From: Alphaproteobacteria bacterium
GTDB taxonomy: Bacteria; Pseudomonadota; Alphaproteobacteria; RF32; CAG-239
Length of the DNA stretch: 64,000 nt
Direction of reading: 5' to 3'
Assembly: GCA_045637985.1 (NCBI GenBank)
Contig: JAZUAM010000006.1
Coordinates: forward strand, 10,726 to 74,725
This document shows, one piece after another, positions 4,943 through 59,131 of the stretch. Each line of letters begins with the position of its first letter. Within the stretch, counting starts at the first letter, position 1. A program made the position numbers and the translations under genes. The notes under the pieces were generated by a model, which was given only the letters and a program-made list of their open reading frames with translations, searched no databases and had not been told where the DNA came from.

Positions 4943-5698
4943 TTATTTTTTTAGTTTATTCCATCCTGATTTACGGGCTGCATTATTTTGTTGTTCTGTT
5001 TGCCAGTTTTTTATAGGCTCATTTTTCTTTTGTTGCAAGGCTTTTTGCTCTTCTGTTTGAGCAACTCCGATAGGAAGAAGTTGATTGAACAGAGCCGGTG
5101 AAGCAAAATCTACTTTGTTTTTGATTAAAGGATCTATAATTGCATCAATGATTTGAGCAGCAGGTTTGGCATTGAATGCAGATATTTTTCCGCCATAAAA
5201 GATAGCCAGAGCATGACAAGGGGATGATAGCAAAACGTCTGTAGAATCAATCCCTCGTATAAAGCGTAACATAATCTGCGGTCGTATTACGCAGTTTTCA
5301 GTAACATCAAACATAATGTTGTCCGGATTCATCATTAATTCAGATTTTATGAGTGTTTGCAAATTTGGGTTTATAACGCCACAGAATCCGACTATCGCCA
5401 TTCCATTGATTGTATATCCGGTATAGTTTTCCGGTTTGTTTGCGATTTGATAACAAAAAACTTGTTCGGAATTAGTTATGTTGTTAAGTGCGGATGAACC
5501 TATTGCCGAAGCAATTTCATCAAGTATAGTATTGTGTTCAGGATTGGGTTCCCAAGTTGGAGATATTGTATCATTTTTATTATTATTGTTGTCGGGGGTT
5601 GTATCTTGAGCAATAGCTGATAAGGTAATAAAAAATGATGCAATTATAATATAGACAGTACGCAACAACATAATCAAAACTCCATATAAGCAGAACAA
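4943..5698 (-). CDS. Hypothetical exported protein
   Basis: ORF with an N-terminal hydrophobic signal-like segment ending ...LSAIAQD. No family recognised. The start may be an internal Met (about 5671). Confidence 0.45.
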   Translation of the reverse strand: MFCLYGVLIMLLRTVYIIIASFFITLSAIAQDTTPDNNNNKNDTISPTWEPNPEHNTILDEIASAIGSSALNNITNSEQVFCYQIANKPENYTGYTINGMAIVGFCGVINPNLQTLIKSELMMNPDNIMFDVTENCVIRPQIMLRFIRGIDSTDVLLSSPCHALAIFYGGKISAFNAKPAAQIIDAIIDPLIKNKVDFASPALFNQLLPIGVAQTEEQKALQQKKNEPIKNWQTEQQNNAARKSGWNKLKK

Positions 5699-6095: not shown

Positions 6096-6683
6096 ATGTT
6101 CAGGTTGTTATTGTTTTTTGTTATTTGTTGGTGTGCGACTCCTGCCAAGGCGCAAATGGCATATGAGGACGAAGCGAGAGCTTTGGGGGCTGTAGCAGGA
6201 CAGGGGTTGGCGTGCGGTTCAGCAAAATATGATACGTTTGAGTTGTTGGCACGAGCAATTATTTTGACAAAATCTCCCAATGATGCATTGCAAGATAAAG
6301 CGTTGAAAATATTTACAGAAGAAAAAGCAGATGTGTTTGTGGCAAAGCAATTGGATAATTTTGCCGGTTGTGATAGAATAGTTGATGTTTTTGATGCTCA
6401 GGATATTTTTAAGGCGACTCTTTATGGGGATGGCACAATTAAGATGCCGGATGGTAAAATATTAACTCCGAGGAATCCTTACGATGCATCAATGATATAT
6501 GATAAAAATTCAAATGTCAGACAAAGAGCTTCATCGATTTATCGGAAAGATAAATCAAAAATAAAGAAAGTAGAATTTAAAGATGCATCGATGGAGGCCG
6601 GAAATCAAATTAAACCATTAAGTTCTTCCGGCGGAGTTCAGAAGATTCTTAGTATGCCGGGGCGTATTTCGAGGAAGAAATAA
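6096..6683 (+). CDS. Hypothetical exported protein
   Basis: Signal-peptide-like N-terminus MFRLLLFFVICWCATPAKAQ. GGAG-type RBS (AAAAGGAGAAAAA) upstream. No family recognised. Confidence 0.5.
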   Translation: MFRLLLFFVICWCATPAKAQMAYEDEARALGAVAGQGLACGSAKYDTFELLARAIILTKSPNDALQDKALKIFTEEKADVFVAKQLDNFAGCDRIVDVFDAQDIFKATLYGDGTIKMPDGKILTPRNPYDASMIYDKNSNVRQRASSIYRKDKSKIKKVEFKDASMEAGNQIKPLSSSGGVQKILSMPGRISRKK

Positions 6684-14882: not shown

Positions 14883-15662
14883 ATGAGGAAAAATATTTTT
14901 TATTTGTCAGTTGTTTTGTTATTAGCCGGATGTGTACGGGCCGGTGATTATGATTTGTTGCCTGTAAGAGCAAAGGTTTTTAATACTATAAATGGTCTTT
15001 CTATAGAGTTTAATGAAGGGGAAGAAGAATTTGTTTCGTCACAGAGTTTGCGTGAACATGAATATGTAATGAACAAAGCAATCACGGTTCAGAAAGGCGA
15101 AGCGATTTTAAGCGATAAAACCTTTGATAAAGATACGTATCGCAAATGGATTTATCGTCCGAATAAAAAAGGAGCCATTAATTCATCAGCTTATACAATG
15201 AAACTTGATAATAAAAAAGAGTATGATGTTGTAGGTTGGGTAAATTTTAACGGAGACAGATATTCGTTGTTGGATAGCGGTGTTAACGATTATGTATTTT
15301 TATTTGATGAATATGGGCGTTTTTATAAGCATGCAGGTAGAATAGAAGATGGTCGTTTGATTGTTTTGGATGAGGATATTTTTGCTTATCCGTCGGATGT
15401 TAAAATGCAAACAATTGCAAAAATGCGAGATGAGGTAAGCAATGTAAAAAACGGATATGAAGTAAAATATGCGGGAACTAAGTTAGATAGAATATGGTTT
15501 GATTATATGGATTATGATCCGGTGTATAATGAAGGCGGATCTTTTGAAAAGTTAAATTTTCCAAATAAGCCGGGGCTTATTATGATTAACGGTAAAGGTT
15601 TGCGGGTATTGGATGCTGATAAAGATTCGATTACTTATATGATTCTTAAGGCTGACGAATGA
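14883..15662 (+). CDS. Hypothetical lipoprotein
   Basis: Lipobox-type N-terminus MRKNIFYLSVVLLLAGC. No family recognised. Confidence 0.5.
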   Translation: MRKNIFYLSVVLLLAGCVRAGDYDLLPVRAKVFNTINGLSIEFNEGEEEFVSSQSLREHEYVMNKAITVQKGEAILSDKTFDKDTYRKWIYRPNKKGAINSSAYTMKLDNKKEYDVVGWVNFNGDRYSLLDSGVNDYVFLFDEYGRFYKHAGRIEDGRLIVLDEDIFAYPSDVKMQTIAKMRDEVSNVKNGYEVKYAGTKLDRIWFDYMDYDPVYNEGGSFEKLNFPNKPGLIMINGKGLRVLDADKDSITYMILKADE

Positions 15663-18253: not shown

Positions 18254-19576
18254 ATGAGTAATATAAAAGTTAGATTTGCACCAAGTCCTACGGGATGGAT
18301 GCATATCGGTAATACGCGTACGGCTGTGTTTAATTGGTTGTTGGCTAAGAAATTAGGTGGAAAATTTTTGCTTAGAATCGATGATACTGATGTAGCCCGT
18401 TCAAAAAAAGAATATGAAGATGCTATCAGAGATATTTTGGTATGGTTAGGGCTTAATTGGGATGAAGAAGCCAGACAATCGGCCAGAATTGACCGGTATA
18501 ACGATGTAGTAGAAAAACTTAAGTCTGAAGGGCGTATTTATGCTTGTTATGAAACTGCCGAAGAGTTGGAAGTTATGCGTAAAAAATTGATGGCTCAAGG
18601 CAGACCGCCAATTTATGATAGAGGTGCTTTGAAACTCAGTAATGAAGATATTGCTCGCTATGAAGCTGAAGGAAGAAAGCCGCATTATCGATTTAAATTA
18701 CTTCCCGGAGTGATAGAATGGGAAGATATGGTCAGAGGTAAGATTCATTATGATGCGGCAAATTTAGCTGATCCGGTGATCATCAGAGAAGATGGAAGTT
18801 ATCTTTATCATTTGCCATCGGTTATTGATGATTTTGATTTTGGAATTACACATATCATCCGTGGTGAAGATCATGTTACAAATACGGCAACACAAATTCA
18901 AATGTTTGAGGCCTTGGGGGGAGATGTTCCTTCGTTTGCGCATTTGCCGTTATTGACAGGTAAAGAAGGAAAGCTGTCTAAACGATTGGGGTCTTTAGGT
19001 GTTAGAGAATTGAGAGCTGAAGGCATAGAGAGTCTTGCAATTTGTTCATTTTTAGCAAAATTAGGAACGTCTGAAGCTATAGAACCCTTTTATGATTTAA
19101 ATAGTTTGGCTCAGTCTTTAGATTTATCTAAATTAGGACGTTCACAGCCGAAATTTGATGAAGAAGAATTGAAGTTGTTTAGTGCAAAATTTGTACGAGG
19201 AATGTCATATGAAAATGTTAAAAATAAAACATCTGTAGATGAACGTTTTTGGGATGCAGTAAAAGGTAATTTAGATAAAGTTGAAGAAGCTGCAATATGG
19301 TATGATATTTGTGTTAATAGTATTGTTCCTGTTGTGGAAGATGTAGAGTTGACAACAATGGCTGCGGATTTATTGCCGGCAGAACCATGGTCTGAGAATA
19401 CATATAGTGAGTGGATGAATTTGGTAAAAAGTAATACAAATAAAAAAGGAAAAGAGCTTTTTCATCCAATTCGTAAAGCCTTGACAGCTCAAGATAGTGG
19501 TCCGGAACTTAAAATATTGTTGCCGTTTATAGGTCGTGAGCGAGCATATAATCGTTTAAAAGGAAACAAAGCTTAG
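18254..19576 (+). CDS. gltX: Glutamate--tRNA ligase
   Basis: VRFAPSPTGWMHIGNTRTA (HIGH region) and KLSKRLGS (KMSKS region). ATG at 18254 preferred over the TTG at 18248. Confidence 0.93.
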   Translation: MSNIKVRFAPSPTGWMHIGNTRTAVFNWLLAKKLGGKFLLRIDDTDVARSKKEYEDAIRDILVWLGLNWDEEARQSARIDRYNDVVEKLKSEGRIYACYETAEELEVMRKKLMAQGRPPIYDRGALKLSNEDIARYEAEGRKPHYRFKLLPGVIEWEDMVRGKIHYDAANLADPVIIREDGSYLYHLPSVIDDFDFGITHIIRGEDHVTNTATQIQMFEALGGDVPSFAHLPLLTGKEGKLSKRLGSLGVRELRAEGIESLAICSFLAKLGTSEAIEPFYDLNSLAQSLDLSKLGRSQPKFDEEELKLFSAKFVRGMSYENVKNKTSVDERFWDAVKGNLDKVEEAAIWYDICVNSIVPVVEDVELTTMAADLLPAEPWSENTYSEWMNLVKSNTNKKGKELFHPIRKALTAQDSGPELKILLPFIGRERAYNRLKGNKA

Positions 19577-19600: not shown

Positions 19601-20968
19601 ATGTTTTTGTTTAATACTCTTAATAGAAAAAAAGAAGAATTTGTTCCGATTGACGAAAATAATATTAGAATGTACGTTTGCGGTCCGACGGTTTATGATA
19701 GGGCGCACTTGGGTAATGCAAAGACACCGGTAGTTTTTGATGTTTTGTATAGAATATTGCGTAACAGGTATGGAAATGATAGAGTCACTTATGTTTCAAA
19801 TATTACGGATGTTGATGATAAGATTTTAAATAAGCATAAAGAAACAGGAAAGCCTATTCGCGAAATTACCGAACAAACCTATCAGTGGTATATAGATGAT
19901 ATGGCAAAACTCAATGTTTTGTCTCCGAATTATCGGCCAAGAGCAACTGAATATATCAATGAGATGATAGAGATTGTTGAGTTATTGCTTAAGAATGGCC
20001 ATGCCTACGAGTCGAAGGGACATGTGCTGTTTGATGTTGACTCTATGAAAAATTATGGTTTTTTGTCCGGACGTTCGATGAAAGAGATGTTGGCGGGGGC
20101 AAGAATAGAAATTGCTGATTATAAGAAGAATCCTGCGGATTTTGTTTTGTGGAAACCTTCAGAAACAGATCAGCCGGGGTGGAACAGTCCTTGGGGATAT
20201 GGGCGTCCCGGTTGGCATTTGGAATGTTCGGCAATGAGTTCAAAGTTGTTGGGTAATTCTTTTGATATTCATGGTGGTGGAGCAGATTTGATTTTTCCGC
20301 ATCATGAGAATGAGTGCGCTCAATCGTTGTGCGCTTATCCGCAAGATTGTTTTGCTCGTTATTGGGTTCATGGCGGAATGTTAATGGTCGATGGTGTTAA
20401 GATGTCTAAATCTTTAGGTAATTTTTATACTATTGATCAGGTTTTAGAAAAAGCTCCGGCCGAGGCTCTTAGGTTATTGTTTTTAACCACTCATTATCAT
20501 CAACCTTTTAACTTTACGTTTGAAGGGTTGGAATCAGCTAAGCAAAGTTTGGATAAATTTTATAATGCTTTGTTACGTGTTAAGGATGTTGCTACAGATA
20601 ATAGTTTGGCAGATGAACGAATCGTTAATGCCTTGGAAGATGATTTAAATACACCTCTTGCGATAAGTTATCTTCATGAGGTGGTTAATAATTTGAATAA
20701 ATCAGAAGACAATGCGGATAAGGCTAAGTGGAAAACCATACTTTTAAAATCAGCGGATTTGATGGGAATATTGTGGCAGAATCCGGAAGAATGGTTTAAA
20801 GGAGATGCTGAAGGTGATGCCGAGGAAATTGAGGCGTTGATTGTAAAGAGGGCTGAGGCAAAAAAGAATAAAGATTATGTTTTAGCTGATAAAATCAGAA
20901 ATGATTTAAAGGAAAAAGGTATTTTGTTGGAAGATGGTCCGCAAGGTACTACGTGGAAAAAAGCTTAA
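19601..20968 (+). CDS. cysS: Cysteine--tRNA ligase
   Basis: MYVCGPTVYDRAHLGNAKT (HIGH-type), GWHLECSAMS zinc site, KMSKSLGN. Confidence 0.95.
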   Translation: MFLFNTLNRKKEEFVPIDENNIRMYVCGPTVYDRAHLGNAKTPVVFDVLYRILRNRYGNDRVTYVSNITDVDDKILNKHKETGKPIREITEQTYQWYIDDMAKLNVLSPNYRPRATEYINEMIEIVELLLKNGHAYESKGHVLFDVDSMKNYGFLSGRSMKEMLAGARIEIADYKKNPADFVLWKPSETDQPGWNSPWGYGRPGWHLECSAMSSKLLGNSFDIHGGGADLIFPHHENECAQSLCAYPQDCFARYWVHGGMLMVDGVKMSKSLGNFYTIDQVLEKAPAEALRLLFLTTHYHQPFNFTFEGLESAKQSLDKFYNALLRVKDVATDNSLADERIVNALEDDLNTPLAISYLHEVVNNLNKSEDNADKAKWKTILLKSADLMGILWQNPEEWFKGDAEGDAEEIEALIVKRAEAKKNKDYVLADKIRNDLKEKGILLEDGPQGTTWKKA

Positions 20969-26839: not shown

Positions 26840-26914
26840 TTGCTAAATATATTTAAGTGTTATATACTTCGTGGACTTATATAAAATTATTTGTTCACTA
26901 AAAATTTGTTATTT

Positions 26915-27889
26915 ATGAATGCACTAAAGAAATCAATTCAGGAAAAATTGACAGCATCGTTAGAGGTGTTTGCAAAGAAATCAGGTGTTCCGACGAACAT
27001 GGCGACTTATGGCAAATGTTTTAAGGCATTGTCGCAAAAAGATGCTGAGAAGGTTTTGCAAACACTTCCGACGGCATGGGATGTTCTTAAACCGAAAGAG
27101 TTTAGAGTTTTTGCTGCAAGTGGACGAGTGGCTCGAGCGTTGTCGTACATTGACAGATGGAAACTTTCTTTAGAACTTGGTCGAGGTGATGAATTATTAA
27201 ATACACCGCTTTGTTTTGCCGTTAGACGAAAAAATGATCTTACTAATTTTGCTGTTGTAAGTTCTTCATGTGAAAATGCCAAAATAAAAGTTGTGGAGTT
27301 TTGGACTGAATTTTCGACTGTTGATGGTTATACTCGTGATTTTCCGGAAACTGTACTTGCCGTTGAGGGAAATGTGGTTTTTACTCTTGTTTTTAAGCCC
27401 GCGGAGGTAATGACACTTCTTGATTGGGATGATGTTTGGGATGTTCCTGAAATTACAAGAAATTTTAAGGATAAGCTTGAAGAATATACGTTGCTTTTTC
27501 GTCAGCTTTATGCCAAAAAAATTGAGGCTCGTCAATTGCTTCCCAACTATAATTTTGCGACCGGCTCGGTAGATGAATATATTGACGATGATGAAAGAAG
27601 AATTGTCGGAAAGTTTGATTCTGTTCTTTGTAAAGATTGGCGTAAATTGAAGCGACTGTTTAATGTCGGTAGGATTATTTATGTAGCAGAATATAATCGC
27701 CGTCATCATGTGGTAAAAAATCCTCTGAAGGACGTTTTTTTTACGAATCCTATAGGAAATGCGAAAATTACTTTTGTGTATATCAAAGGTAATTGGGATA
27801 TTGAATTTCCTATAAGTGATGGTGTGATACTTAGAATGGTTCCTGATTTTACTAAGGTAAAGAGAATTAGTCGAAAGCTTAGTAGATGA
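26915..27889 (+). CDS. Hypothetical cytoplasmic protein (orphan, about 324 aa)
   Basis: Long uninterrupted ORF with no TM segment or signal peptide. No family recognised. ATG at 26915 preferred over the TTG at 26891. Confidence 0.5.
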   Translation: MNALKKSIQEKLTASLEVFAKKSGVPTNMATYGKCFKALSQKDAEKVLQTLPTAWDVLKPKEFRVFAASGRVARALSYIDRWKLSLELGRGDELLNTPLCFAVRRKNDLTNFAVVSSSCENAKIKVVEFWTEFSTVDGYTRDFPETVLAVEGNVVFTLVFKPAEVMTLLDWDDVWDVPEITRNFKDKLEEYTLLFRQLYAKKIEARQLLPNYNFATGSVDEYIDDDERRIVGKFDSVLCKDWRKLKRLFNVGRIIYVAEYNRRHHVVKNPLKDVFFTNPIGNAKITFVYIKGNWDIEFPISDGVILRMVPDFTKVKRISRKLSR

Positions 27890-31725: not shown

Positions 31726-32658
31726 ATGAATTCGGCATTGAAAAAATCGATTGCTTTACACGTTGTGGTTTTTCTGTTGTTTGTAGTTGAAATGCCAATG
31801 TTTTGGTGGAATCGTACTCAACCGAGCCAAGTGCCGATTATTGTCGATTTAAAAGATGTTAAAATTTCGGAAATGACAAATCTTCCTCCAAAAGCTAAAA
31901 TAGGGAAAGAGGATAAAGAGGCGAGCCAAGTTAAACGAAAAGTTGAGAAAAAATATACCAAAGAAGAAGCTAAAGTTGAACCTGAAGTTAAAGAAGAAAA
32001 TATAAAGGAAAAAGAAGCTGAAAGTGAGCCGGTTGCCAAACCGGAACCGCCAAAAAAAGATTTTATGGTTGCTCCTCAACCGAAAAAACCACAAATGAAA
32101 GTTAAACCAAAGAAGCTAGATAAGGTTAAACCCAAAAAGCAAGAGCAAAAGAAACAACCGTCTAAAAAAGAAAATAAAGAAGAACCTCAGTTAGCGAATC
32201 CGTTAAAGAGTTTGTTGGCCAGTGTTGATGCTTTGGAAAAAGAAGCGGATAAATCGACTACCGCAACAATTAAGGAAGGGACAGAGGTGGCTAATATGGG
32301 GGTTGAAGGAGGAACTGTCGGTTCATATTTTAGTGAGCTTTCGATTTCGGAAATGGATGCTTTAGCCGGACAATTGCGTGCTTGTTGGAATCTTGATCCG
32401 GGTGCTATGGGTATTGAAGATATGGTTGTGGAAATTAAAGCTCAACTTAATCAGGATGGCACCGTGCGGTCGGTTGATATTCAGAATACGGCAAGATATA
32501 ATACTGATAGTTATTTTAGGTCTGTGGCAGAAAGTGCAAGACGAGCAGTGTATATTTGCGCACCATATAAGATATTGTCAGAAAAGTATGCTGAAAAATA
32601 TGATGAATGGCGTTTGTTACGTTTGAGATTTAATCCGATTGATCAATCTGTAAGATAA
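31726..32658 (+). CDS. tolA: Cell envelope integrity protein TolA
   Basis: N-terminal TM helix, long K/E/P-rich linker and a C-terminal TolA/TonB-like domain (...LRACWNLDPGA...DGTVRSVDIQ...). Its position after tolR supports the call. Confidence 0.8.
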   Translation: MNSALKKSIALHVVVFLLFVVEMPMFWWNRTQPSQVPIIVDLKDVKISEMTNLPPKAKIGKEDKEASQVKRKVEKKYTKEEAKVEPEVKEENIKEKEAESEPVAKPEPPKKDFMVAPQPKKPQMKVKPKKLDKVKPKKQEQKKQPSKKENKEEPQLANPLKSLLASVDALEKEADKSTTATIKEGTEVANMGVEGGTVGSYFSELSISEMDALAGQLRACWNLDPGAMGIEDMVVEIKAQLNQDGTVRSVDIQNTARYNTDSYFRSVAESARRAVYICAPYKILSEKYAEKYDEWRLLRLRFNPIDQSVR

Positions 32659-47624: not shown

Positions 47625-47714
47625 TCTAAATATAAAAAATATGTTGTGCATAATGTAAACTTGGGCTATATTGGTTCCAAGTTTATTTTTTTAGAAACAA
47701 AAGTTTTAAAATAT

Positions 47715-48851
47715 ATGAGTAAGTGGCAGGAAAAGAATAATAAAGCTGCAACTAAAGGTGTAGTTGATAAGTCAGCACAACAAGTCAGTAGTGATAATTA
47801 TGCAGCTATTGATTTGGGTACGAATTCGTGTCGGCTAGTAATAGCGATACCAACTCCTTCGTCTTTTCGAATCGTTGAAACATTTTCCAAAATAACACGT
47901 TTGGGGGAAGGAATTATAAATAATAATGAGTTATCTCATACGGCAATTCGGAGAACTGTAAATGCATTGCGTGTTTGTGCGGGGGTCTTGGAAGAATATG
48001 CTCCGATTAAAAGAGCCAGATTTGTTGCAACAGCAGCGTGTCGTCGTGCTAAAAATTGTCGTTATTTTTTAGATTTGGTAAAAAAAGAAACGGGATTAAA
48101 CATCGAGATAATTTCTTCGCAAGAAGAGGCCAGATTGGCTGTGGTAGGGTGTGTTCCTTTGTTGAACAGAAATATAAAAAGAGCTTTGGTTTTTGATATA
48201 GGCGGAGGATCAACAGAGGTTTCGCTTGCCAGAATGACAAATTCTGGTCGGACTATTATTGAGGGTTTTGTTTCGTTGCCATATGGGGTTGTTACGGTTT
48301 CGGAAGCTTTTCCGAATCGAGATATGACGGAATTGGCTTATAGCACTATAATTGATCGCACCCATAAAATATTAGCGGAGTTTGAGGAAAAATATCATAT
48401 AGCAGAAGCAATCAGTAATCAAGAAATTCAGGTTTTGGGAACCTCCGGTACGGTTACTGTTTTAGGAGCAATTCATCTTAATTTGCCACGCTATAACCGA
48501 TCGGCCGTTGATGGTTTAGCTCTTGGTGTGCAAGATGTTGAGAAAACAATCGCTAAGATTAAACGAATGGGAGATGAGGGGCGTAAAAAACATGCTTGTA
48601 TCGGGATGCAGAAAGCTGATTTGACGATTGCCGGATGTGCAATTATTGAAGGTTTGTTATCTTTTTGGAATATTTCAGAAATTACGATTGCTGATCGGGG
48701 AATCCGAGAAGGTATTTTATTAGATATGATGCACGCCGGAAAACAAGAAAAAAGAAATAAAAAAGGATTTCGTCCAAGGTATCCGTTTAGTAAGAAATCA
48801 CGCAAATATTTTAATAATAACCAAAAAAATAGGGAAGTTGTTAATGACTAA
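47715..48851 (+). CDS. Ppx/GppA-family phosphatase, copy 1 (short form with a basic C-terminal tail)
   Basis: AAIDLGTNSCRLVIA..., DIGGGSTEV, GTSGTVT actin-like ATPase-fold motifs of Ppx/GppA. The tail is K/R-rich. ATG at 47715 preferred. Confidence 0.8.
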   Translation: MSKWQEKNNKAATKGVVDKSAQQVSSDNYAAIDLGTNSCRLVIAIPTPSSFRIVETFSKITRLGEGIINNNELSHTAIRRTVNALRVCAGVLEEYAPIKRARFVATAACRRAKNCRYFLDLVKKETGLNIEIISSQEEARLAVVGCVPLLNRNIKRALVFDIGGGSTEVSLARMTNSGRTIIEGFVSLPYGVVTVSEAFPNRDMTELAYSTIIDRTHKILAEFEEKYHIAEAISNQEIQVLGTSGTVTVLGAIHLNLPRYNRSAVDGLALGVQDVEKTIAKIKRMGDEGRKKHACIGMQKADLTIAGCAIIEGLLSFWNISEITIADRGIREGILLDMMHAGKQEKRNKKGFRPRYPFSKKSRKYFNNNQKNREVVND

Positions 48852-49797
48852 GACATACGCTGGAATAGATTTGGGATCAAATTCTTGTAAATTGTTAATT
48901 TGTGATGAAAACGGAAAACGTTTGTGTCTGAAAAATTATCCTACCAGATTGGCAGAAGGAATGTATGAGAATAATTTGATAACTAAGCAGGCTTTTGAAA
49001 GAGGGCAACAATGTTTTTTTGAATATCGTCAGTTATTAGATAAATATGGTGTTGAAACTGATAATATGCGTGCTATTACCACTGCGGCTTGCAGGATGGC
49101 ATCAAACGGTGAGGAATTTGTAAAGAGTATTTTTAATGAATCGCGAATAAAGCTAGAAATAATAGACGGGATGGAAGAAGCTAAGTTAAATTTAAAAGGG
49201 GCTCTTGAACATGTTCAAGGACAGAGCAAGTATGTTGTTGTTTATGATTTGGGAGGAGGATCAACAGAGGTTACTTTGGCAACCAATGAAGTTAATCCGA
49301 AGATAATTTATTCTGTTTCAATTCCTTGGGGTGCAAGAAATTCTTCAGAAGCTTTTGATTTGGTCGAATATAATCAAGAAAAAGCGGCTAAGTTGGAAAA
49401 TGAAGTTAATTTGTATATGGATGATTTTTTGAATAATTCAAAACTAAGTGAATATGATGATGTTTGTTTTGTTGCAACATCATCATCACCATTGCGTTTG
49501 GTTTCAATGATCAGAAATTTTGGTGAATATGATCGAGAAAGAGCTGATGGGCTAAAAATGAATAAGCAAGAAATGGATGAGGCTATAGCAAAATTATTAT
49601 CGGCTAAAAGAAAAGATTTGGCGGCAAGTCCATATGTCGGAGATAAAAGGTCGTATATTTTTGTGGCGGCGTGTGTAATATTTAAGACTATATATGAACG
49701 TTTGGGGTTAGAAGAAATAACAGCTTCATTAAAAAGTGCAAAAGATGGTATTGTAGCCAGCTTAATTGAGAGGGATAAATATGGCAAAGTTGACTAA
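48844..49797 (+). CDS. Ppx/GppA-family phosphatase, copy 2
   Basis: AGIDLGSNSCKLLIC..., DLGGGSTEV. Overlaps copy 1 by 8 nt. AGGGAAG RBS. Confidence 0.8.
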   Translation: MTKTYAGIDLGSNSCKLLICDENGKRLCLKNYPTRLAEGMYENNLITKQAFERGQQCFFEYRQLLDKYGVETDNMRAITTAACRMASNGEEFVKSIFNESRIKLEIIDGMEEAKLNLKGALEHVQGQSKYVVVYDLGGGSTEVTLATNEVNPKIIYSVSIPWGARNSSEAFDLVEYNQEKAAKLENEVNLYMDDFLNNSKLSEYDDVCFVATSSSPLRLVSMIRNFGEYDRERADGLKMNKQEMDEAIAKLLSAKRKDLAASPYVGDKRSYIFVAACVIFKTIYERLGLEEITASLKSAKDGIVASLIERDKYGKVD

Positions 49798-52443: not shown

Positions 52444-54213
52444 ATGTTGAAGCGTTTGGCATATGTTTTGGTGGTAATTGGCGGAATTGGATTGTTGGGA
52501 GCTTGTGCATCTGAGAAAAAAACGTTAGGAACAGCTCTTAATACGAATGATTTGGTTTTTTCCGGTCCGGTAGAATCGTTACCTAAGCCTGTAAATGTAT
52601 ATAATGCTATGGCAAGAGCAGCTAAATATAATGCTGATGTTTCGGCTCAGAATATGTTGAAGAAGATATATGACGGTAATGAGAATCCGAAGAAAATTGC
52701 CGAAAATATGTTTGCGGCAGGGCAAGAAGCGGACAAGCTTTATAATGCGGCCAGAGCATTGGATTTTGCTGATATTTATGCTATGAGTATTTTAACAGAT
52801 AATCAGAGATATATTGAAAATATGCTTTATGTGAAGTCTGCTCAGAATTTGAGTGTTGCGGCCATTAAGTTGCATAGAGAGGAAATTTTTGCAGAAAATC
52901 AAATTAAAAAGATTGATCGTTTAATGAAACAACAAGATAAGGTTTTAAAAAACTTGAATGATCGTATGGAGCGTAGTGGTGATCTTACGGATAAAGAACT
53001 TACGTATCGTAAAGATTTGGAAGTAGCATTAAATAATTTAGCAGAAATTAAAAGTCAGTTGCTTTATGTTGAAACAGAGTATAAACAACTTTTAAGAACA
53101 AAGGATAAAGATTTAGATCTTGAGAGTAAAAGATTTTATGAATTAGATGATTTTGATAAACGTTATAATCCTGATGTGTTTCAAGATTCAGCTATAAGTA
53201 ATCGTCGAGAATTTACGTTGGCAAAAGAAGAGTTAGGCAGTTTTAATGCCGCGAAGGCCAGACGTCAGGCTTTTGTTGATTATCCACCTGTGGCAAGATT
53301 GGATATAAATGGTTTGGAAATAGAGGATAGTCGTTATGAAAATGAACTGTTTAATAAGGCAAAGCTTGTGACGACTAATTTGTTTGATGCTGTTGAGAAA
53401 TATCAAAATAAACCAAATAATTTGGTTCTGAAACAAAAAGTTTTTGATGAATTGGCCGCATTGGTTATGACTCAAGTTGAATTGGGGTATCGTTTAGTTG
53501 AAAAATCAACATATGATTATGAAGCCAATAAGTATAAAATTGCAGAAGCAAAAGAAATTATCAAACAAATGGAAAAGAAACGTAATTTACCGGAATATGA
53601 AAAGGTTGATTTGTTAAACAAAAAAATTGAACTTATTGCTCTTGAACAGAAAGAGGCGCAAGTGTTGGCCGAAAGAGCTTCGTCTTTACGTAATTTGTAT
53701 TATTTGGCAGGACTTTCACCATTTGATAAAAGTGTATTAAAGGGGAGAATTAAAGATATTGAGATAACATTAAAGCAAGCATTTAATAAGGACGTGATTG
53801 CGATGTTGTCTGCGGTTAAGGAGAATCCTCGTTGGGATGATGGAGGAAATGCGTGGGCGCACAAGGATAATTGGCTTGAAGAATTGATTGATAGCGATGA
53901 AAATAAAAAAGTAAGTAAAACAGCAGATAAATCAGCTGCTAAACAAATAAAAAAATCAAGTAGTGCGGCAACAGATAAAAAAGGATATACTGTGATGCAG
54001 TTTGGTGCATATACAGATATGGAAAATGCAATAGCTGATCAGAAAAGGATAAAAGATGCTGTTTCATCCTTATCCGGATATGATATGTATATAGAAGAAG
54101 CTGAAGTTAACGGTACGGTGTATCATCGGTTGATGATGAAACCGGAGCAAAATAAACTGCAAAGTTTGTGTAATGATGTTGTTGTTGCCGGTTTTGACTG
54201 TATTCTTAAATAA
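52444..54213 (+). CDS. Lipoprotein with a long helical region and a C-terminal SPOR domain
   Basis: Lipobox LLGAC, about 480 aa predicted helical/coiled-coil, K/S-rich linker, then a SPOR-like domain (GYTVMQFGAYTDMENAIADQKRI...YHRLMM...CNDVVVAGFDCIL). GAGGTG RBS. Confidence 0.65.
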   Translation: MLKRLAYVLVVIGGIGLLGACASEKKTLGTALNTNDLVFSGPVESLPKPVNVYNAMARAAKYNADVSAQNMLKKIYDGNENPKKIAENMFAAGQEADKLYNAARALDFADIYAMSILTDNQRYIENMLYVKSAQNLSVAAIKLHREEIFAENQIKKIDRLMKQQDKVLKNLNDRMERSGDLTDKELTYRKDLEVALNNLAEIKSQLLYVETEYKQLLRTKDKDLDLESKRFYELDDFDKRYNPDVFQDSAISNRREFTLAKEELGSFNAAKARRQAFVDYPPVARLDINGLEIEDSRYENELFNKAKLVTTNLFDAVEKYQNKPNNLVLKQKVFDELAALVMTQVELGYRLVEKSTYDYEANKYKIAEAKEIIKQMEKKRNLPEYEKVDLLNKKIELIALEQKEAQVLAERASSLRNLYYLAGLSPFDKSVLKGRIKDIEITLKQAFNKDVIAMLSAVKENPRWDDGGNAWAHKDNWLEELIDSDENKKVSKTADKSAAKQIKKSSSAATDKKGYTVMQFGAYTDMENAIADQKRIKDAVSSLSGYDMYIEEAEVNGTVYHRLMMKPEQNKLQSLCNDVVVAGFDCILK

Positions 54214-54220
54214 AAAAAGT

Positions 54221-54249
54221 TTGTCAAAATACAAATTTTGCGTTATTCT
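54221..54249 (+). promoter_or_regulatory. Sigma70-like promoter candidate for the pentapeptide/T4CP-like pair
   Basis: TTGTCA (54221-54226), 17-nt spacer, TATTCT (54244-54249). Confidence 0.35.
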
Positions 54250-54287
54250 GTAAAAAAACTTAGGAAACTTAATGCTGAGGAAATTTT

Positions 54288-55403
54288 ATGCAGGATGATA
54301 GTAAGTTAGATAATATTCGAGCCAGAATTAGAGAGGGGCAAGAAGATTTCGATCGACGATTGCAAGAAGAAATACAAGGAAAGACTTCTTGGAGTATGGT
54401 TTCAAAGCATGGAGTTGATGCCAAAAATATTTTTGATGATGACAAATTGAGGTTTATCGGCAAAAATTTAGAGAATGGAAAATTTGCAAAAGAGAATTTA
54501 CAAGGAGCGGATTTTTCTGTTGCAAATTTGACGGGGGTTGATTTTTCCGGTGCAGATTTGCGAGGGGTTAATTTTTCCGGTGCAAATTTAACGGGGGCTG
54601 ATTTATCAGGAGCTGATTTGAGTGGTGCCATATTGGCCGGTACGGTTTTACATGGTACAAATTTTACGAAAGCTAAGCTTAATGGTGTTAAATTTACTGA
54701 TGCGGATTTAGAAAATGCAATTCTTTTAGATATTGAAATCGATGTTATAGGGATTGAAGAACTTCAAGCTCTTATAGAATATTTGGCAAAATATTATCCT
54801 CATAAATTAAATTTAAGAAATATTAATTTATCGTTATTGGATTTATCTAAAATTGATTTATCCAAAGTCAGTTTAAGAGGTGTTGATTTTACCGGAATTG
54901 ATTTTACCGGAGTTAATATTGTCGGATTAGATTTGAGTGAATGTAATATTACTCCTGAGCAGATTGCACAGGCTTTAGGAAGGGTTCCAGGGAAAGAAGA
55001 ATTAGCAAGAATTTTGGCGCCAAAAAATAAGAAAAAGTCAAATTATCAAAGTGTTGATTTTACGGAGTTGTTTTTAGGTAACAATAAGGAATTCGGAGTG
55101 CTTGATTTTCAAAAGGATAAAGGAATTAGCATTGAAACGCTAATAAAGGCCGGAAAAAAAGTATTCGGACAAGGCAAGAAGCCTGATGTGAAAGATGAAC
55201 AGGCATTAGAAAATATAAAGAGTGAACAGGATTTGAAGGCGAAATCTCATAATGAAGAGTTGCGAAAGATTATTGAAGAGCGTAAAGAAAAAGAATTAGC
55301 TGCCAGAAAAGCAATGAAAGAAAGTATTGATCAAGAGAAACCTAAGATAAAAGAAAATAACGAACATATTGTTCCTATACGGGATATGGGAAGAGGACGA
55401 TAA
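54288..55403 (+). CDS. Pentapeptide-repeat protein with a K/E-rich C-terminal tail
   Basis: 16 consecutive pentapeptides (ENLQG ADFSV ANLTG VDFSG ADLRG VNFSG ANLTG ADLSG ADLSG AILAG ...) and a second block of about 10 (...LDLSK IDLSK VSLRG VDFTG IDFTG VNIVG LDLSE). No signal peptide. GAGGAA RBS. Confidence 0.85.
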   Translation: MQDDSKLDNIRARIREGQEDFDRRLQEEIQGKTSWSMVSKHGVDAKNIFDDDKLRFIGKNLENGKFAKENLQGADFSVANLTGVDFSGADLRGVNFSGANLTGADLSGADLSGAILAGTVLHGTNFTKAKLNGVKFTDADLENAILLDIEIDVIGIEELQALIEYLAKYYPHKLNLRNINLSLLDLSKIDLSKVSLRGVDFTGIDFTGVNIVGLDLSECNITPEQIAQALGRVPGKEELARILAPKNKKKSNYQSVDFTELFLGNNKEFGVLDFQKDKGISIETLIKAGKKVFGQGKKPDVKDEQALENIKSEQDLKAKSHNEELRKIIEERKEKELAARKAMKESIDQEKPKIKENNEHIVPIRDMGRGR

Positions 55404-55408
55404 AAATA

Positions 55409-57742
55409 ATGTGTGGACAAATCAGCATAGCTCATGAAAAGAGTCGATTGGGTATAGTGTTGAATGTTGGGATATTGTTGTTTGTTGTTTATTTGTCATT
55501 TTTTATATTATCGGCAGTATGTTTTGCATTTCTTGATTTGGCATGTCGGTTTGATTTTATTATTCATGATGATTTGTTGCACGTAGATTGGAAGTCTTTT
55601 TTTTACAATCCGTTGTATGTGTTTGATTTGTATGTTAATTGGTGGAATACGTTAGTTAAAAGTATTCGTTTGATGATGTGGCGTCCGGTTTTGTTGGTTC
55701 CGTTTGTGGTGCCGGTTGGAATGTTTGTTGCTGCAATTGTTACTTTGTTAACAAGAAACTATTCGTTTTCTTTGTGGTATATTTTGAATCATCATTTTGC
55801 AAATATTAAAGATATTAAGTTAATGGGACTTGATAAAGGTCTTTTTATGGTCTTAGGGCGATATGCCGGAGCGTTGCTTAGTGTTAAGCCGGCTGATTCC
55901 GTTTTATGTATTGGGGAGATGGGAAGCGGCAAAACATCAAGTGTTGCAATACCATCTGTTTTAAGATCGGATAATGCGTGTATAATAGGCGTAGATATGA
56001 CAGGGCTTTTGCCAAAGTATACGGCAGGATATCGCGCAGAATTAGGTAAAGTAATTTATTATAATTGGGATTTAACGGATGATCCTGAAAAAGAAATGTA
56101 TTATCCTCGGTGGAATCCTTTGGATGATGATAATATGCCTAAGGACAGAAAAGAAAAAGATGCTTATTTGAAAAGAATTGCAAATTATCTTATCGATGTT
56201 GATGATTGTGAAAAGGATAATTATTGGAATATCTTAGCTAATTCATTGGTTGTATCATTTTTGGGATATTGGGTTGCGAAAGTTGAACAGGCTAAATCAA
56301 ATGATTATTTTTTAGGAAAAATTTTGGAAGGTAAGCATTTAACTAAAGAGGAAAAAGATATATTACTTAGTCATTATGTGTTGATGCCATCTTCATATAC
56401 TAAAGAAATTATAAGTGCAATTCAGAACGACAGTTTAAATGAAAATAATTATTTACCTATCGGAAGTTGGGCCGGTGTTCCGGAACAATGGATAGGAAGA
56501 GATGTTTGTTTTGCAACTATAACGGATTGGGTTCTTGAAAATTATTTGTCATCAACGGATGATAATATACGTGATTGGAAAGGTTGGTTTGATGCTTTGT
56601 TACGAGAAACAATATTTTTCGGATACGGAACGTCTGTTGAAAGTGGAATACGACAGATTTTGGCATTATCGGCTAAGCAGAGACAATTAGTTTTTGCATG
56701 TGCTATAAAACCATTTAAAATATTTACCAATCAAGCAATTCGTGAAAGAACAAATGGTAATGATTTTTATTTGGATAATATCAGAGGTGTTTATGATGAA
56801 AATTTGGGTGTTTGGCGTCCGGTAACAATTTATTCTATGGCTAACACGTATGCATCGAAAATTTTGAATCAAATGTTTTTGGATGAAGCATTGTATCAAA
56901 ATCTTAATTTAAAAGAAAATATAGGGCCTTTGCCTGTTATGTTGGTGTTGGATGATGTGGGACATAATCTTCGTTTGAAAAATTTGATGGAGTTATTGCA
57001 GAGTGGACGAAGTAAAAAAATGTCGGCATTATTGTTGTGTAATTCATTGGCATTGGTGGAAAATACATATAGTAAGCAGGAATTGGAAAATGTTGTTGTA
57101 AATACAGCATATAAAATCATAAAAGCATCGGATAACCAAAAGCTTAGTCGGCAGTTGGATAAATTGGCGGCATTTGCAACCAGATCTGTTCAGATACCTA
57201 AAGATAAACGAAAAAGAAAGAGAGATAAAAGAAAATATTTTGCTGATGCAAATTATTTTCACCAATTGGCATTAGATTTTAAGTTACGCAAAAATATTAA
57301 AATTGATACAAAAGATCATCAGATTGTTTTGGCAGAAGGATATTATCATCGTCCGATTTTGGCTGATAATGTATTTTTTGCGGAAGATGATCGATTTAAA
57401 AAATTGGCTGTTATGAATGCAGATTATACTCTGGCAGAGGATATATTAGATAAGAAGAATAAAAAGTATATGGAAACGCCCAAAGTTACGGAAATATTTA
57501 ATAATAAAGATTTGGGGCTTGATGATTTGGTTGAACTGGAACAGTATCTGAATGTTGTTTTTGAAGAATTTTCTGATGAAGTTTCTTCAATTAGTGAAAA
57601 GAAAGAAGAAACAGTAAAAGATATAGCGGTTGAAAAAACGGATAACGCGACGGATAAAGAGGTTGAAGATTGGTGGCTATCGGAAAATGCATTTAATTTT
57701 GAGTTAAAAACAAAAACGAATCCGTTTGGTAATAAAAAATAG
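55409..57742 (+). CDS. Divergent VirD4/TraG-like type IV coupling protein family membrane ATPase (orphan)
   Basis: N-terminal hydrophobic helices, Walker A GEMGSGKTS (from nt 55913), RWNPLD, DNYWN, Walker-B-like VMLVLDDVG (from nt 56936) and GRSKKMSALLLCNSLALVENTY, in the motif order of T4CPs. Acidic/basic C-terminal tail. Confidence 0.6.
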   Translation: MCGQISIAHEKSRLGIVLNVGILLFVVYLSFFILSAVCFAFLDLACRFDFIIHDDLLHVDWKSFFYNPLYVFDLYVNWWNTLVKSIRLMMWRPVLLVPFVVPVGMFVAAIVTLLTRNYSFSLWYILNHHFANIKDIKLMGLDKGLFMVLGRYAGALLSVKPADSVLCIGEMGSGKTSSVAIPSVLRSDNACIIGVDMTGLLPKYTAGYRAELGKVIYYNWDLTDDPEKEMYYPRWNPLDDDNMPKDRKEKDAYLKRIANYLIDVDDCEKDNYWNILANSLVVSFLGYWVAKVEQAKSNDYFLGKILEGKHLTKEEKDILLSHYVLMPSSYTKEIISAIQNDSLNENNYLPIGSWAGVPEQWIGRDVCFATITDWVLENYLSSTDDNIRDWKGWFDALLRETIFFGYGTSVESGIRQILALSAKQRQLVFACAIKPFKIFTNQAIRERTNGNDFYLDNIRGVYDENLGVWRPVTIYSMANTYASKILNQMFLDEALYQNLNLKENIGPLPVMLVLDDVGHNLRLKNLMELLQSGRSKKMSALLLCNSLALVENTYSKQELENVVVNTAYKIIKASDNQKLSRQLDKLAAFATRSVQIPKDKRKRKRDKRKYFADANYFHQLALDFKLRKNIKIDTKDHQIVLAEGYYHRPILADNVFFAEDDRFKKLAVMNADYTLAEDILDKKNKKYMETPKVTEIFNNKDLGLDDLVELEQYLNVVFEEFSDEVSSISEKKEETVKDIAVEKTDNATDKEVEDWWLSENAFNFELKTKTNPFGNKK

Positions 57743-57811: not shown

Positions 57812-59131
57812 ATGGAAGATACTTTATTTTCGGCAAAAGTAAAACGCCCTTTGGCAGATAGGTTACGTCCTCAGTTACTGAGTGAAGTAGTAGGGCAGAG
57901 TCATATAATAGGAAAAGATGCGCCTTTAGGGAGGATGATTGAATCCGGAAAAGTCGGTTCATTTATTTTGTGGGGACCACCCGGTTGCGGAAAAACGACA
58001 ATAGCGAGATTAATAGCTGAAAATACCAAACTTTATTTTGAGCAAATTTCGGCGGTTTTTTCCGGTGTTGCAGATTTGAAACGAGTTTTTCAATATGCGC
58101 AAGAAAGAAGAATGAATCAAGGAATTGGTACATTATTATTTGTTGATGAAATTCATCGATTTAATAAATCACAACAAGATGGTTTTTTGCCATATGTTGA
58201 AGATGGTACTATAATATTAGTAGGTGCAACTACAGAAAATCCGTCGTTTGAGTTAAATGCTGCTTTGTTGTCAAGATGTCAGGTTTTTGTTTTGAATAGA
58301 TTGAATGCTGATGATTTTGAAGAGTTGTTGCAACGAGCAGAAAAAGAAGTTGGAAAAAAACTGCCGGTTGATGATGAAGCCAGAGAGTTTATGAAGGCAA
58401 CTGCTGATGGTGACGGGCGATATATTTTGAATTTAGCCGAAAGTGTGTGGAACTATGCTAAAGATAACGAGGTTTTTGATAAAGAAACAATTGTAAAAAT
58501 TATAAGAAGTAGAGCTCCGGTATACGACAAAGGGCGTGATGGGCATTATAATTTGATTTCAGCAGTACATAAATCATTGCGAGGATCAGATGTTGATGCA
58601 GCTCTTTATTGGGTTGCAAGAATGATAAAATCGGGAGAGGATCCGAAATATATTTTGCGCAGATTAACGAGATTTGCGGTAGAAGATGTTTCGTTGGCAG
58701 AACCCGGAGCTGTCGTGCAAGCGATAGCCTGTTGGGATACTTATGAACGACTTGGCTCACCGGAGGGTGATTTAGCGATTATGCAACTTACGGCCTATTT
58801 GGCAACAGCTCCAAAATCAGCGGGGGTATATAAAGCTATGCATGCGGCCTTTGATTTGGCAAAAAAAACAGGATCATTGATGCCTCCCAAAAATATTTTG
58901 AATGCTCCAACAAAATTGATGAAAGAGTTGGGGTATAACGAAGGATATGAATATGATCCTGATTGTGAAGATGGTTTTTCCGGAGCAAATTATTTTCCGG
59001 AAGGAATGCGACGCCCCAAATTGTATTATCCGGTGGATAGAGGATTCGAAAGAGAAATAAAAAAACGTGTTGAATATTTTGATAAATTAAGAAAAGAAAA
59101 ACAGCGAGCAAAAGGGAAGATTGATGAATAA
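57812..59131 (+). CDS. rarA: Replication-associated recombination protein A (RarA/MgsA AAA+ ATPase)
   Basis: PLADRLRPQLLSEVVGQSHI..., GPPGCGKTTIARLIA, LFVDEIHRFNKSQQD, ...HYNLISAVHKSLRGSD. Confidence 0.93.
   Translation: MEDTLFSAKVKRPLADRLRPQLLSEVVGQSHIIGKDAPLGRMIESGKVGSFILWGPPGCGKTTIARLIAENTKLYFEQISAVFSGVADLKRVFQYAQERRMNQGIGTLLFVDEIHRFNKSQQDGFLPYVEDGTIILVGATTENPSFELNAALLSRCQVFVLNRLNADDFEELLQRAEKEVGKKLPVDDEAREFMKATADGDGRYILNLAESVWNYAKDNEVFDKETIVKIIRSRAPVYDKGRDGHYNLISAVHKSLRGSDVDAALYWVARMIKSGEDPKYILRRLTRFAVEDVSLAEPGAVVQAIACWDTYERLGSPEGDLAIMQLTAYLATAPKSAGVYKAMHAAFDLAKKTGSLMPPKNILNAPTKLMKELGYNEGYEYDPDCEDGFSGANYFPEGMRRPKLYYPVDRGFEREIKKRVEYFDKLRKEKQRAKGKIDE

Follow-up and report, generated by a model that had tools for sequence, protein, structure and literature searches.

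Type IV coupling proteins (T4CPs), among them VirD4, TraG and TrwB, are defined as the substrate gate of conjugation and effector-secretion machines; the branch described here behaves as a core chromosomal gene. It is represented in a 64,000-nucleotide (nt) stretch of the alphaproteobacterial contig JAZUAM010000006.1 (positions 10,726 to 74,725), referred to below as the window, by a T4CP-like gene that directly follows a gene for a pentapeptide-repeat protein (PRP), with a lipoprotein gene (LIP) upstream of both:

52444 to 54213, + strand: LIP gene, lipoprotein of 589 amino acids (aa) with lipobox LLGAC, upstream of the PRP gene
54288 to 55403, + strand: PRP gene, 371 aa
55409 to 57742, + strand: T4CP-like gene, 777 aa, 5 nt after the PRP gene

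An earlier reading of the letters alone (the sequence-only reading) had placed the two open reading frames (ORFs) of the pair at the same coordinates, 5 nt apart, and had not recognized the pair as a described system. Both statements hold, and literature searches turned up no account of the gene pair, of comparable orphan T4CPs or of any secretion system in the lineage. The earlier two-gene view is refined by the third gene, which lies beside the pair in most loci and encodes a TolC-like lipoprotein with a SPOR-like domain.

The window T4CP shares with VirD4, TraG and TrwB two predicted N-terminal transmembrane (TM) helices, a RecA-like domain with an inserted all-alpha domain, an intact Walker A motif and the RWNPL and RERT..SD motifs; its Pfam scores are above threshold and its best fold matches are members of this group. 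Unlike them, it has Asp-Asp (DD) rather than Asp-Glu (DE) in Walker B, belongs to a family with Asn or Asp in place of Gln at the sensor position, and carries QAxANDYFL and DWWL..NPF motifs of its own. Its identity to plasmid T4CPs is at most about 23%, and no close relative was found on plasmids; the gene is chromosomal, vertically inherited and, in 86 loci, never adjacent to VirB or relaxase genes. These loci, each with a complete T4CP ORF and together holding 81 distinct sequences, were read for 10 kb on either side and underlie the comparisons below.

The T4CP of closest solved structure, Cagbeta, has a dedicated partner: CagZ binds the all-alpha domain of Cagbeta, inhibits its ATPase and controls its oligomeric state (PMC9886983). 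By analogy, the PRP may bind the all-alpha domain of the window T4CP. Unlike the beta-helix PRP, CagZ is all-helical and U-shaped, and unlike the window T4CP, Cagbeta lies in a complete island of the Cag T4SS (type IV secretion system) and keeps DE. An alphaproteobacterial T4CP with a pentapeptide-repeat-containing interactor is also on record, namely Rickettsia RvhD4, whose interaction with the protein cREM-4 had been shown in earlier work (PMC11077975). Unlike the PRP, cREM-4 is about 950 aa long with one small repeat block and is not reported as encoded beside rvhD4; RvhD4, unlike the window T4CP, belongs to a complete rvh T4SS. The acidic pentapeptide-repeat protein MfpA, like Qnr a DNA mimic, is regulated by the adjacent GTPase MfpB (PMC3575795), and the window locus likewise places an acidic pentapeptide-repeat protein beside a P-loop NTPase. 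MfpB, however, is a small Ras-like GTPase rather than a membrane T4CP, and the PRP, unlike MfpA and Qnr, has its repeats in two blocks with a helical insert between them and carries a long K/E-rich tail.

By profile score and modeled fold the 777-aa protein is a divergent T4CP, yet it lacks two catalytic-motif features and the genomic association of its family. The explanation we favor, to which we give about an even chance, is that it is an exapted T4CP, now a vertically inherited chromosomal gene of an uncultured gut alphaproteobacterial lineage, which forms an operon with an acidic PRP and would regulate that protein as a slow switch.

Family, fold and active site of the coupling protein

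The profile hidden Markov model (HMM) scores agree with the family assignment of the sequence-only reading. The 777-aa protein reaches 62.9 bits against PF02534 (T4SS-DNA_transf; cut-off, 20.1), 31.1 bits against PF10412 (TrwB_AAD_bind; cut-off, 20.5) and 29.1 bits against PF12696 (TraG-D_C; cut-off, 22), while the 371-aa protein scores as Pentapeptide; all five T4CP motif strings quoted in that reading occur in the translation. The NCBIfam equivalogs are failed by a wide margin, with 32.5 versus 728 bits for VirD4 (PRK13897), 39.7 versus 674 bits for IncP TraG (PRK13876) and 61.7 versus 250 bits for the CD1115-type equivalog. In a sequence search of the PDB, Cagbeta was the sole solved T4CP to be matched, and only weakly (E = 6e-6). 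An AlphaFold2 model built from a 22-sequence family alignment (predicted local distance difference test [pLDDT], 79; predicted TM-score [pTM], 0.72) has as its best PDB matches in Foldseek Cagbeta (8DOL; E = 2e-15) and TrwB (1E9R; E = 6e-9), followed by HerA, DndH-C, TdpAB and VirB4, with SIR2-HerA among the distant ones.

In this model, long hydrophobic N-terminal helices at about aa 13 to 47 and 93 to 115 are putative TM helices. They are accompanied by a nucleotide-binding domain of RecA-like fold, into which an all-alpha domain is inserted, by a disordered basic loop (aa 591 to 613) and by an acidic C-terminal extension. The segments that bear on function are as follows:

55913 to 55936, + strand: Walker A P-loop GEMGSGKT, aa 169 to 176
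56147 to 56749, + strand: all-alpha domain, aa 247 to 447, with signature QAxANDYFL at aa 294 to 302; putative partner-binding receptor
56939 to 56956, + strand: Walker B MLVLDD (Asp-Asp for Asp-Glu), aa 511 to 516
57029 to 57046, + strand: sensor-position motif LLLCNS, aa 541 to 546 (GQD..Q in canonical T4CPs)
57668 to 57739, + strand: C-terminal motif DWWLSENAF...NPFGNKK, aa 754 to 777; low-confidence, probably disordered tail

There are 68 near-invariant positions in the T4CP, both Walker motifs included, and 31 of the 68 fall in the all-alpha domain. The C-terminal motif (DWWLxExAF...NPFxKK) is present in most main-clade genomes and absent from the basal clades; it lies in a region with pLDDT below 50 (aa 732 to 777) and may serve as a docking peptide.

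The nucleotide-binding site combines a conserved P-loop with changed catalytic residues. The P-loop is canonical in 83 of 86 genomes, with G169, G172, G174 and K175 at least 95% conserved and the lysine present in all 86. The sequence-only reading had drawn attention to DD in Walker B and to Asn in place of Gln, and both are real and conserved in the family: DD is found in 83/86 genomes (D515 and D516 each at least 95% conserved), and the sensor position reads CN in 49 genomes and TD in 17. Canonical T4CPs in the same alignment have APPGTGKT, LDEF and GQD..Q. The corresponding Walker B residues of TrwB are D356/E357. Those of Cagbeta are D550/E551 (PMC9886983). As judged from the alignment, DD and the replacement of Gln by Asn or Asp are therefore clade-wide conserved traits and not sequencing noise. 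A DE Walker B occurs only in the basal paired locus L009, and the canonical Gln (VQ) only in the basal loci L009 and L087. Since the canonical residues are confined to basal members that are already paired and already orphan, the remodeling came after formation of the pair.

Some full-length metagenome relatives (within P0096 to P0133) have degraded P-loops (GDDGASKI, AAPGNNKT and TTKNSLNP), and some have DN or DG in Walker B, yet retain the RWNPLS, QAxANDYFL and VRERTSxSD motifs, which suggests that catalysis is dispensable in certain branches. Family-wide catalytic degradation was considered and rejected, as badly degenerate P-loops occur in only a minority of the metagenome representatives.

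Conserved pairing, selection and loss

The PRP scores 119.5 bits against Pfam PF00805 (Pentapeptide; cut-off, 20.2). About 27 five-residue units are in register, in blocks at aa 60 to 149 and 176 to 222, followed by a K/E-rich tail, in good agreement with the roughly 26 repeats in two blocks plus tail of the sequence-only reading. Alignments further delimit an N-terminal segment with an invariant Trp35, an acidic first block, a helical linker (IEELQALIEYLAKYYPHKL) between the blocks, and a conserved ITPEQIAQALGRVPG..ELARILAPK segment between block 2 and the tail. The net charge of the repeat domain is -9 in the window copy (orthologue median, -12), and the PRP is described here as a cytoplasmic, acidic, DNA-mimic-like protein. 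The analogy with the Dot/Icm protein DotG that had been drawn from the sequence goes no further than the common repeats: the PRP scores 32.3 bits against the DotG/IcmE equivalog (cut-off, 750), and only its repeat region is matched. We also considered whether the PRP ends in a T4SS-type signal of positive charge and dropped the idea: the terminal Arg is conserved, yet over the last 15 residues the median net charge is no more than +1. The PRP is the better conserved of the two proteins, with roughly 47 to 66% identity where the T4CP has 31 to 43%.

A word-indexed search returned 87 to 88 T4CP clusters, every named one a metagenome-assembled genome (MAG) labeled Alphaproteobacteria, and a word-indexed search with a profile, meant to reach remoter relatives, added nothing to the 88 clusters. 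It took an exhaustive HMM search, over 1.84 billion representatives, to bring out a graded series of full-length relatives that merges into canonical T4CPs and comprises 240 proteins at E ≤ 1e-30. Relatives of the T4CP occur in at least 156 to 178 species-representative genomes, and the PRP occurs in 218. The carriers are nearly all gut or rumen MAGs labeled Alphaproteobacteria or proteobacteria, from hosts that include humans, ruminants, deer, chicken and rabbit; their labels include “Proteobacteria bacterium CAG:495,” several “Azospirillum sp.” bins and “Candidatus Scatocola,” which NCBI places in Rhodospirillales incertae sedis. We take the lineage to be family CAG-239 of GTDB order RF32. 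Two MAGs labeled Lactobacillaceae or Lactobacillus (L077/L169, JAISVX010000001.1; L078/L227, JAISFX010000039.1) have the alphaproteobacterial T4CP-rarA-rluC-AsmA locus, with truA-GFO-PRP also upstream on the 391-kb contig of L077; these bins are probably mislabeled or chimeric.

The sequence-only reading had proposed comparative genomics as a check on the pair, which proves to be conserved, always adjacent and syntenic across the lineage. The PRP gene lies directly upstream of the T4CP gene on the same strand in 83/86 loci. L050 joins them after correction of its T4CP start, which had been over-called, and in the other two loci the T4CP is at a contig edge, so that the PRP is directly upstream in 84 of 84 assessable loci. 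The gap between PRP stop and T4CP start has a median of 3 nt (range, -44 to +26; 83 loci). The gene order truA< GFO< LIP> PRP> T4CP> rarA> rluC> AsmA> (arrowheads give direction) is found in 56/86 loci, and synteny holds across genomes whose T4CPs share only about 30% identity. The pair also occurs in three other housekeeping contexts without those neighbors, which makes four unrelated neighborhoods overall:

L004/L005: PepN - pair - RNase H
L009: lspA-pgi-mutL - pair
L087: rlmE - pair

In the basal loci L004/L005, a resolvase-family gene and an ankyrin-repeat gene lie about 6.5 to 8 kb downstream of the pair (18917 to 19532 and 19620 to 20168); ankyrin repeats are common among host-interacting bacteria.

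The arrangement of the two genes is that of one operon, apparently translationally coupled. Two sites read from the window sequence fit this layout, the second of them inside the final PRP codons:

54277 to 54283, + strand: Shine-Dalgarno-like GAGGAAA, 4 nt ahead of the PRP start codon
55388 to 55397, + strand: candidate T4CP ribosome-binding site, GGGAAGAGGA

A promoter/terminator scan found no terminator-like sites between the LIP, PRP, T4CP and rarA genes.

Both genes are under purifying selection. In seven close species pairs, the ratio of nonsynonymous to synonymous substitution rates (dN/dS) is 0.045 to 0.134 for the T4CP and 0.027 to 0.090 for the PRP, the same range as for rluC, GFO and AsmA. 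The T4CP diverges at about the rate of the envelope proteins AsmA and LIP and stays full-length. These data decide the question of whether the T4CP is a nonfunctional last remnant of a decayed conjugative element, an alternative that had been raised from the sequence and that would be suggested by a T4CP gene with altered catalytic residues and no T4SS or relaxase neighbors. Full-length ORFs in all 81 distinct sequences, the low dN/dS, the 68 near-invariant positions with both Walker motifs, the native GC content, the synteny among genomes with T4CPs about 30% identical and the absence from plasmids all speak against it, and because of the selection and conservation data we regard it as refuted for practical purposes.

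A natural knockout is provided by genomes that have the PRP alone. In a scan of PRP-side loci, 14 of 80 have the PRP adjoining rarA, with the downstream synteny intact and no T4CP (L145, L147-L149, L151, L155-L158, L161-L163, L165 and L167). Between PRP and rarA lie about 140 nt in L167 and about 0 to 9 nt in the other 13. The 13 genomes form one clade nested within the T4CP-bearing clade, and L167 is a separate branch. None of the 14 assemblies is among the T4CP matches ranked on the sister clade's protein (100% to 27% identity); on this sequence evidence, and subject to MAG incompleteness, the T4CP is lost rather than relocated. The solitary PRP is still under purifying selection (dN/dS, 0.04 to 0.15). 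Members of the 13-species clade have in addition acquired about 150 aa at the PRP N terminus, a D/E/Y-rich and extremely acidic extension (total length, 520 aa in L147 and 455 aa in L149) that L167 lacks. Selection on the PRP after loss of the T4CP indicates that it is not a mere substrate, chaperone or accessory and has a function of its own, which the ATPase probably modulates. The domesticated membrane-ATPase module envisaged in the sequence-only reading thus stands in outline, the two genes being always adjacent and apparently coupled in translation, while the role of the PRP as a mere accessory or substrate does not, given its survival in 14 T4CP-less genomes. Dependence seems to go in the opposite direction.

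The upstream lipoprotein, secretion genes and possible functions

The body of LIP has no Pfam, NCBIfam or PDB sequence match, and its architecture comprises the lipobox and a helical, TolC-like domain that a disordered linker joins to a SPOR-like domain at the C terminus. In its AlphaFold2 model (pLDDT, 80.5) the helical domain consists of two repeats of long helical hairpins, as in TolC, CusC, OprM and the NodT lipoproteins, and Foldseek matches it to these outer-membrane factors at E values of 5e-5 to 1e-2 with modest TM-scores of 0.39 to 0.48. The C-terminal domain superposes on the SPOR domain of RlpA (TMt, 0.73; root mean square deviation [rmsd], 2.7 Å). Against Pfam SPOR (PF05036) the window protein scores 15.1 bits over the full model length (E = 0.029), below the cut-off of 21; a precomputed PF05036 match is recorded for three orthologues. 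The TolC fold carries membrane beta-hairpins where LIP has turns of 3 to 4 residues, of fixed length in 30 orthologues, and LIP is therefore best described as a “barrel-less” TolC-like lipoprotein. Unlike the TolC family, to which it does not belong by these tests, it has no Pfam OEP match and no beta-barrel hairpins. We know of no prior description of a TolC-like domain fused to SPOR, though no literature search was aimed at it, and as far as we can tell the architecture is undescribed.

LIP is restricted to the lineage of the pair. Among main-clade PRP-side loci, 61 have both T4CP and LIP, 3 have T4CP without LIP, none has LIP without T4CP, and 14 have neither. LIP is absent from the basal pairs (L004/5, L009 and L087) and from main-clade L077, L083 and L050, and these absences led us to reject an obligatory role for it as third component. 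The T4CP does not depend on LIP, whereas the reverse may be true. With four housekeeping neighbors controlled for, mirror-tree partial correlations are highest for T4CP-LIP (r = 0.59) and T4CP-PRP (r = 0.50), against 0.30 to 0.35 for the other pairs (AsmA controls and LIP-PRP).

Secretion machinery was sought near the pair with VirB2-B11, MobA/MobL relaxase and T4CP probes from the two best alphaproteobacterial plasmid relatives, in both of which the T4CP gene directly follows virB11. The search space was every ORF of the 86 loci and of the window, about 1.7 Mb. The T4CP probes, as a positive control, match 86/86 loci, with the top scores against the plasmid T4CP in the basal clades, in line with these being the least derived; the VirB2-B11 and relaxase probes have no match in the same space. 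A Pfam search of 40 further window ORFs likewise found no T4SS gene, relaxase, integrase or transposase, which bears out the earlier statement that the window has no relaxase, VirB-type gene or integrase. The T4CP is an orphan, as that reading had it, within 10 kb in 86 loci and within the 64-kb window. Together with the constant PRP partner, this points to a role of the ATPase family that is so far undescribed.

In the mechanism that we favor, the T4CP would form an inner-membrane-anchored ring whose all-alpha domain and/or basic loop and C-terminal DWWL..NPF peptide would bind the PRP. Given an intact P-loop but Asp for the catalytic Glu and Asn or Asp for the sensor Gln, the ATPase would be a slow, nucleotide-gated switch that captures, tethers, releases or possibly unfolds the PRP, rather than a motor for fast translocation. 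In this scheme the PRP would act as primary effector on a cell-autonomous target; by analogy of charge and fold class with Qnr and MfpA, a DNA-binding enzyme is the likeliest candidate. The ATPase would be a lineage-specific regulator of the PRP. In most genomes, the TolC-like LIP, predicted to be periplasmic and to bind peptidoglycan, may position the ATPase in the envelope.

Several points weigh against this explanation. The PRP-T4CP complex is proposed by analogy, and the PRP falls far below the equivalog cut-offs of both Qnr (41.6 versus 240 bits) and MfpA (37.4 versus 360 bits). As to the effect of the Glu-to-Asp and Gln-to-Asn changes on hydrolysis, which is judged here from sequence, catalysis with Asp may still be possible. 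By per-domain conservation, the T4CP varies most in its TM and periplasmic part, but canonical T4CPs also have a poorly conserved TM domain, so that this variability does not discriminate. The joint loss of T4CP and LIP represents only one or two events, which makes the phyletic argument statistically weak, and the mirror-tree correlations come from nonindependent pairs and are soft evidence. Finally, a T4SS encoded elsewhere in the genome, as with the scattered rvh genes of Rickettsiales, keeps substantial probability.

The last point is the chief rival explanation, in which the T4CP serves such a T4SS in trans and the PRP is a dedicated adaptor, chaperone or secreted effector. We consider it a possible though doubtful reading. 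The protein has all structural hallmarks of a T4CP (two predicted TM helices, nucleotide-binding domain, all-alpha domain and intact P-loop), the bacteria are gut associated with AT-rich genomes, and other T4CPs use adjacent adaptors, such as CagZ. However, the gene is never beside virB11 or other VirB genes in the 86 loci, unlike its nearest plasmid relatives, and the family as a whole has replaced the catalytic Glu and the sensor Gln, both of which persist in the canonical T4CPs of the same alignment. In addition, purifying selection on the PRP in the 14 T4CP-less genomes is unexpected for an effector or chaperone, and better conservation than that of the T4CP is unusual for an effector. It is unlikely that the T4CP serves no VirB-type machine and instead constitutes, with LIP, a minimal, nucleotide-gated envelope apparatus of a new kind, in which a hexameric T4CP ring of the inner membrane, docked to a trimeric, peptidoglycan-pinned helical tunnel in the periplasm, would handle a DNA-mimicking PRP or nucleic acid; if true, the coupling-protein family would thereby have its first cellular function independent of a T4SS. 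Slightly less likely again is a related reading, in which T4CP, LIP and PRP together are a new, minimal, VirB-independent envelope device: the hexameric ATPase of the inner membrane would dock onto a trimeric, peptidoglycan-anchored tunnel of periplasmic helices, and the PRP or nucleic acid would be exported or presented to the periplasm or the division site. The helical-tunnel fold and SPOR-like domain of LIP, the lack of a terminator between LIP and the pair, the strongest residual covariation (T4CP-LIP) and the absence of LIP from all 14 T4CP-less loci, where it was lost with the T4CP though the two genes flank that of the PRP, speak for such a device. Against it, basal pairs and three main-clade genomes keep PRP-T4CP with LIP missing, so that LIP is not required; for want of outer-membrane beta-hairpins, LIP provides no way across the outer membrane; membrane-fusion and adaptor proteins are absent; TM-scores in Foldseek are modest; and adjacency says little by itself when 56/86 loci are identical in order.

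Two further readings connect the ATPase with DNA. T4CPs share an ATPase superfamily with FtsK and HerA, and HerA, DndH and TdpAB are among the fold matches, which is compatible with an FtsK-like DNA-handling ATPase at the division septum or in replication-repair, with the DNA-mimicking PRP as its brake. SPOR domains bind septal peptidoglycan, LIP has a SPOR-like domain, the PRP is acidic like DNA mimics, and the neighbors include rarA and, in some genomes, topA and dprA or rnhA. The rearranged loci do not keep this link to DNA metabolism, however, the remodeled catalytic residues do not suit a processive motor, and the gene is dispensable in a whole clade; we judge the idea very unlikely. More improbable still is an antiphage or antiplasmid defense role, with the ATPase sensing incoming DNA and the PRP acting as decoy or effector. 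HerA/FtsK-superfamily ATPases do recur in defense systems, SIR2-HerA and TdpAB are distant fold matches, and the two-gene operon is compact, but a PADLOC-DB search gives only a chance-level AbiEii match (E = 0.001; 16.5 bits), Pfam finds no nuclease or other effector domain, and the locus is fixed, syntenic and vertically inherited with housekeeping-like dN/dS, whereas defense genes are typically patchy and island-borne.

The core-like branch is found in no fewer than 150 species, and their gut and rumen lineage is uncultured and poorly known. If no T4SS is encoded elsewhere in these genomes, the branch would be the first clear case of a T4CP exapted to serve a cellular function, and PRPs, the functions of which are mostly unknown, would gain a defined partner. 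The T4CP-less 13-species clade and the graded series of canonical to remodeled active sites make the question directly testable by comparative genomics and biochemistry.

Other features of the locus and window

The neighbors of the pair are truA, a GFO/IDH/MocA oxidoreductase gene, rarA and rluC, as the sequence-only reading had identified them and as Pfam now supports. The GC content of the pair (0.34) is typical of the window, and the 40 further ORFs searched are mostly housekeeping genes, e.g., those for DciA, F0 ATP synthase, PPDK, GltX, CysS, RuvABC, TolQ, NusG and MscL; the rest have no Pfam match. A search of the whole window against Rfam found a single tRNA and no regulatory RNA near the pair.

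The promoter candidate that had been proposed ahead of the pair is present in the 74-nt LIP-PRP spacer:

54221 to 54249, + strand: promoter-like TTGTCA-17-TATTCT, 9/12 matches; weak candidate

It does not rise above chance. The AT-rich region holds 23 promoter-like sites against 28 ± 5 expected from shuffles, and because such sites are not enriched, this one carries little weight.

The rarA and rluC genes overlap by 11 nt in the window (59121 to 59131). In relatives, an ORF of 105 to 130 aa lies between them (e.g., L001, 13706 to 14098), and in the T4CP-less clade an ORF of 268 aa (L147, 6291 to 7097); these insert ORFs have no recorded Pfam match in the loci with listed gene calls. Amid the well-annotated housekeeping genes of the window, five ORFs of 195 to 332 aa have no Pfam match at E ≤ 1e-5:

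4943 to 5698, - strand: ORF without Pfam match
6096 to 6683, + strand: ORF without Pfam match
14883 to 15662, + strand: ORF without Pfam match
26891 to 27889, + strand: ORF without Pfam match
31726 to 32658, + strand: ORF without Pfam match

GC skew is positive across the window (positions 1 to 64000; about +0.1 to +0.43) and dips only at minus-strand genes, which is consistent with one replichore and a strong leading-strand gene bias. Just upstream of rlmE, two tandem, slightly overlapping ORFs of 401 and 319 aa (47646 to 48851 and 48838 to 49797, + strand) look, by eye, like paralogous Ppx/GppA-type phosphatases.

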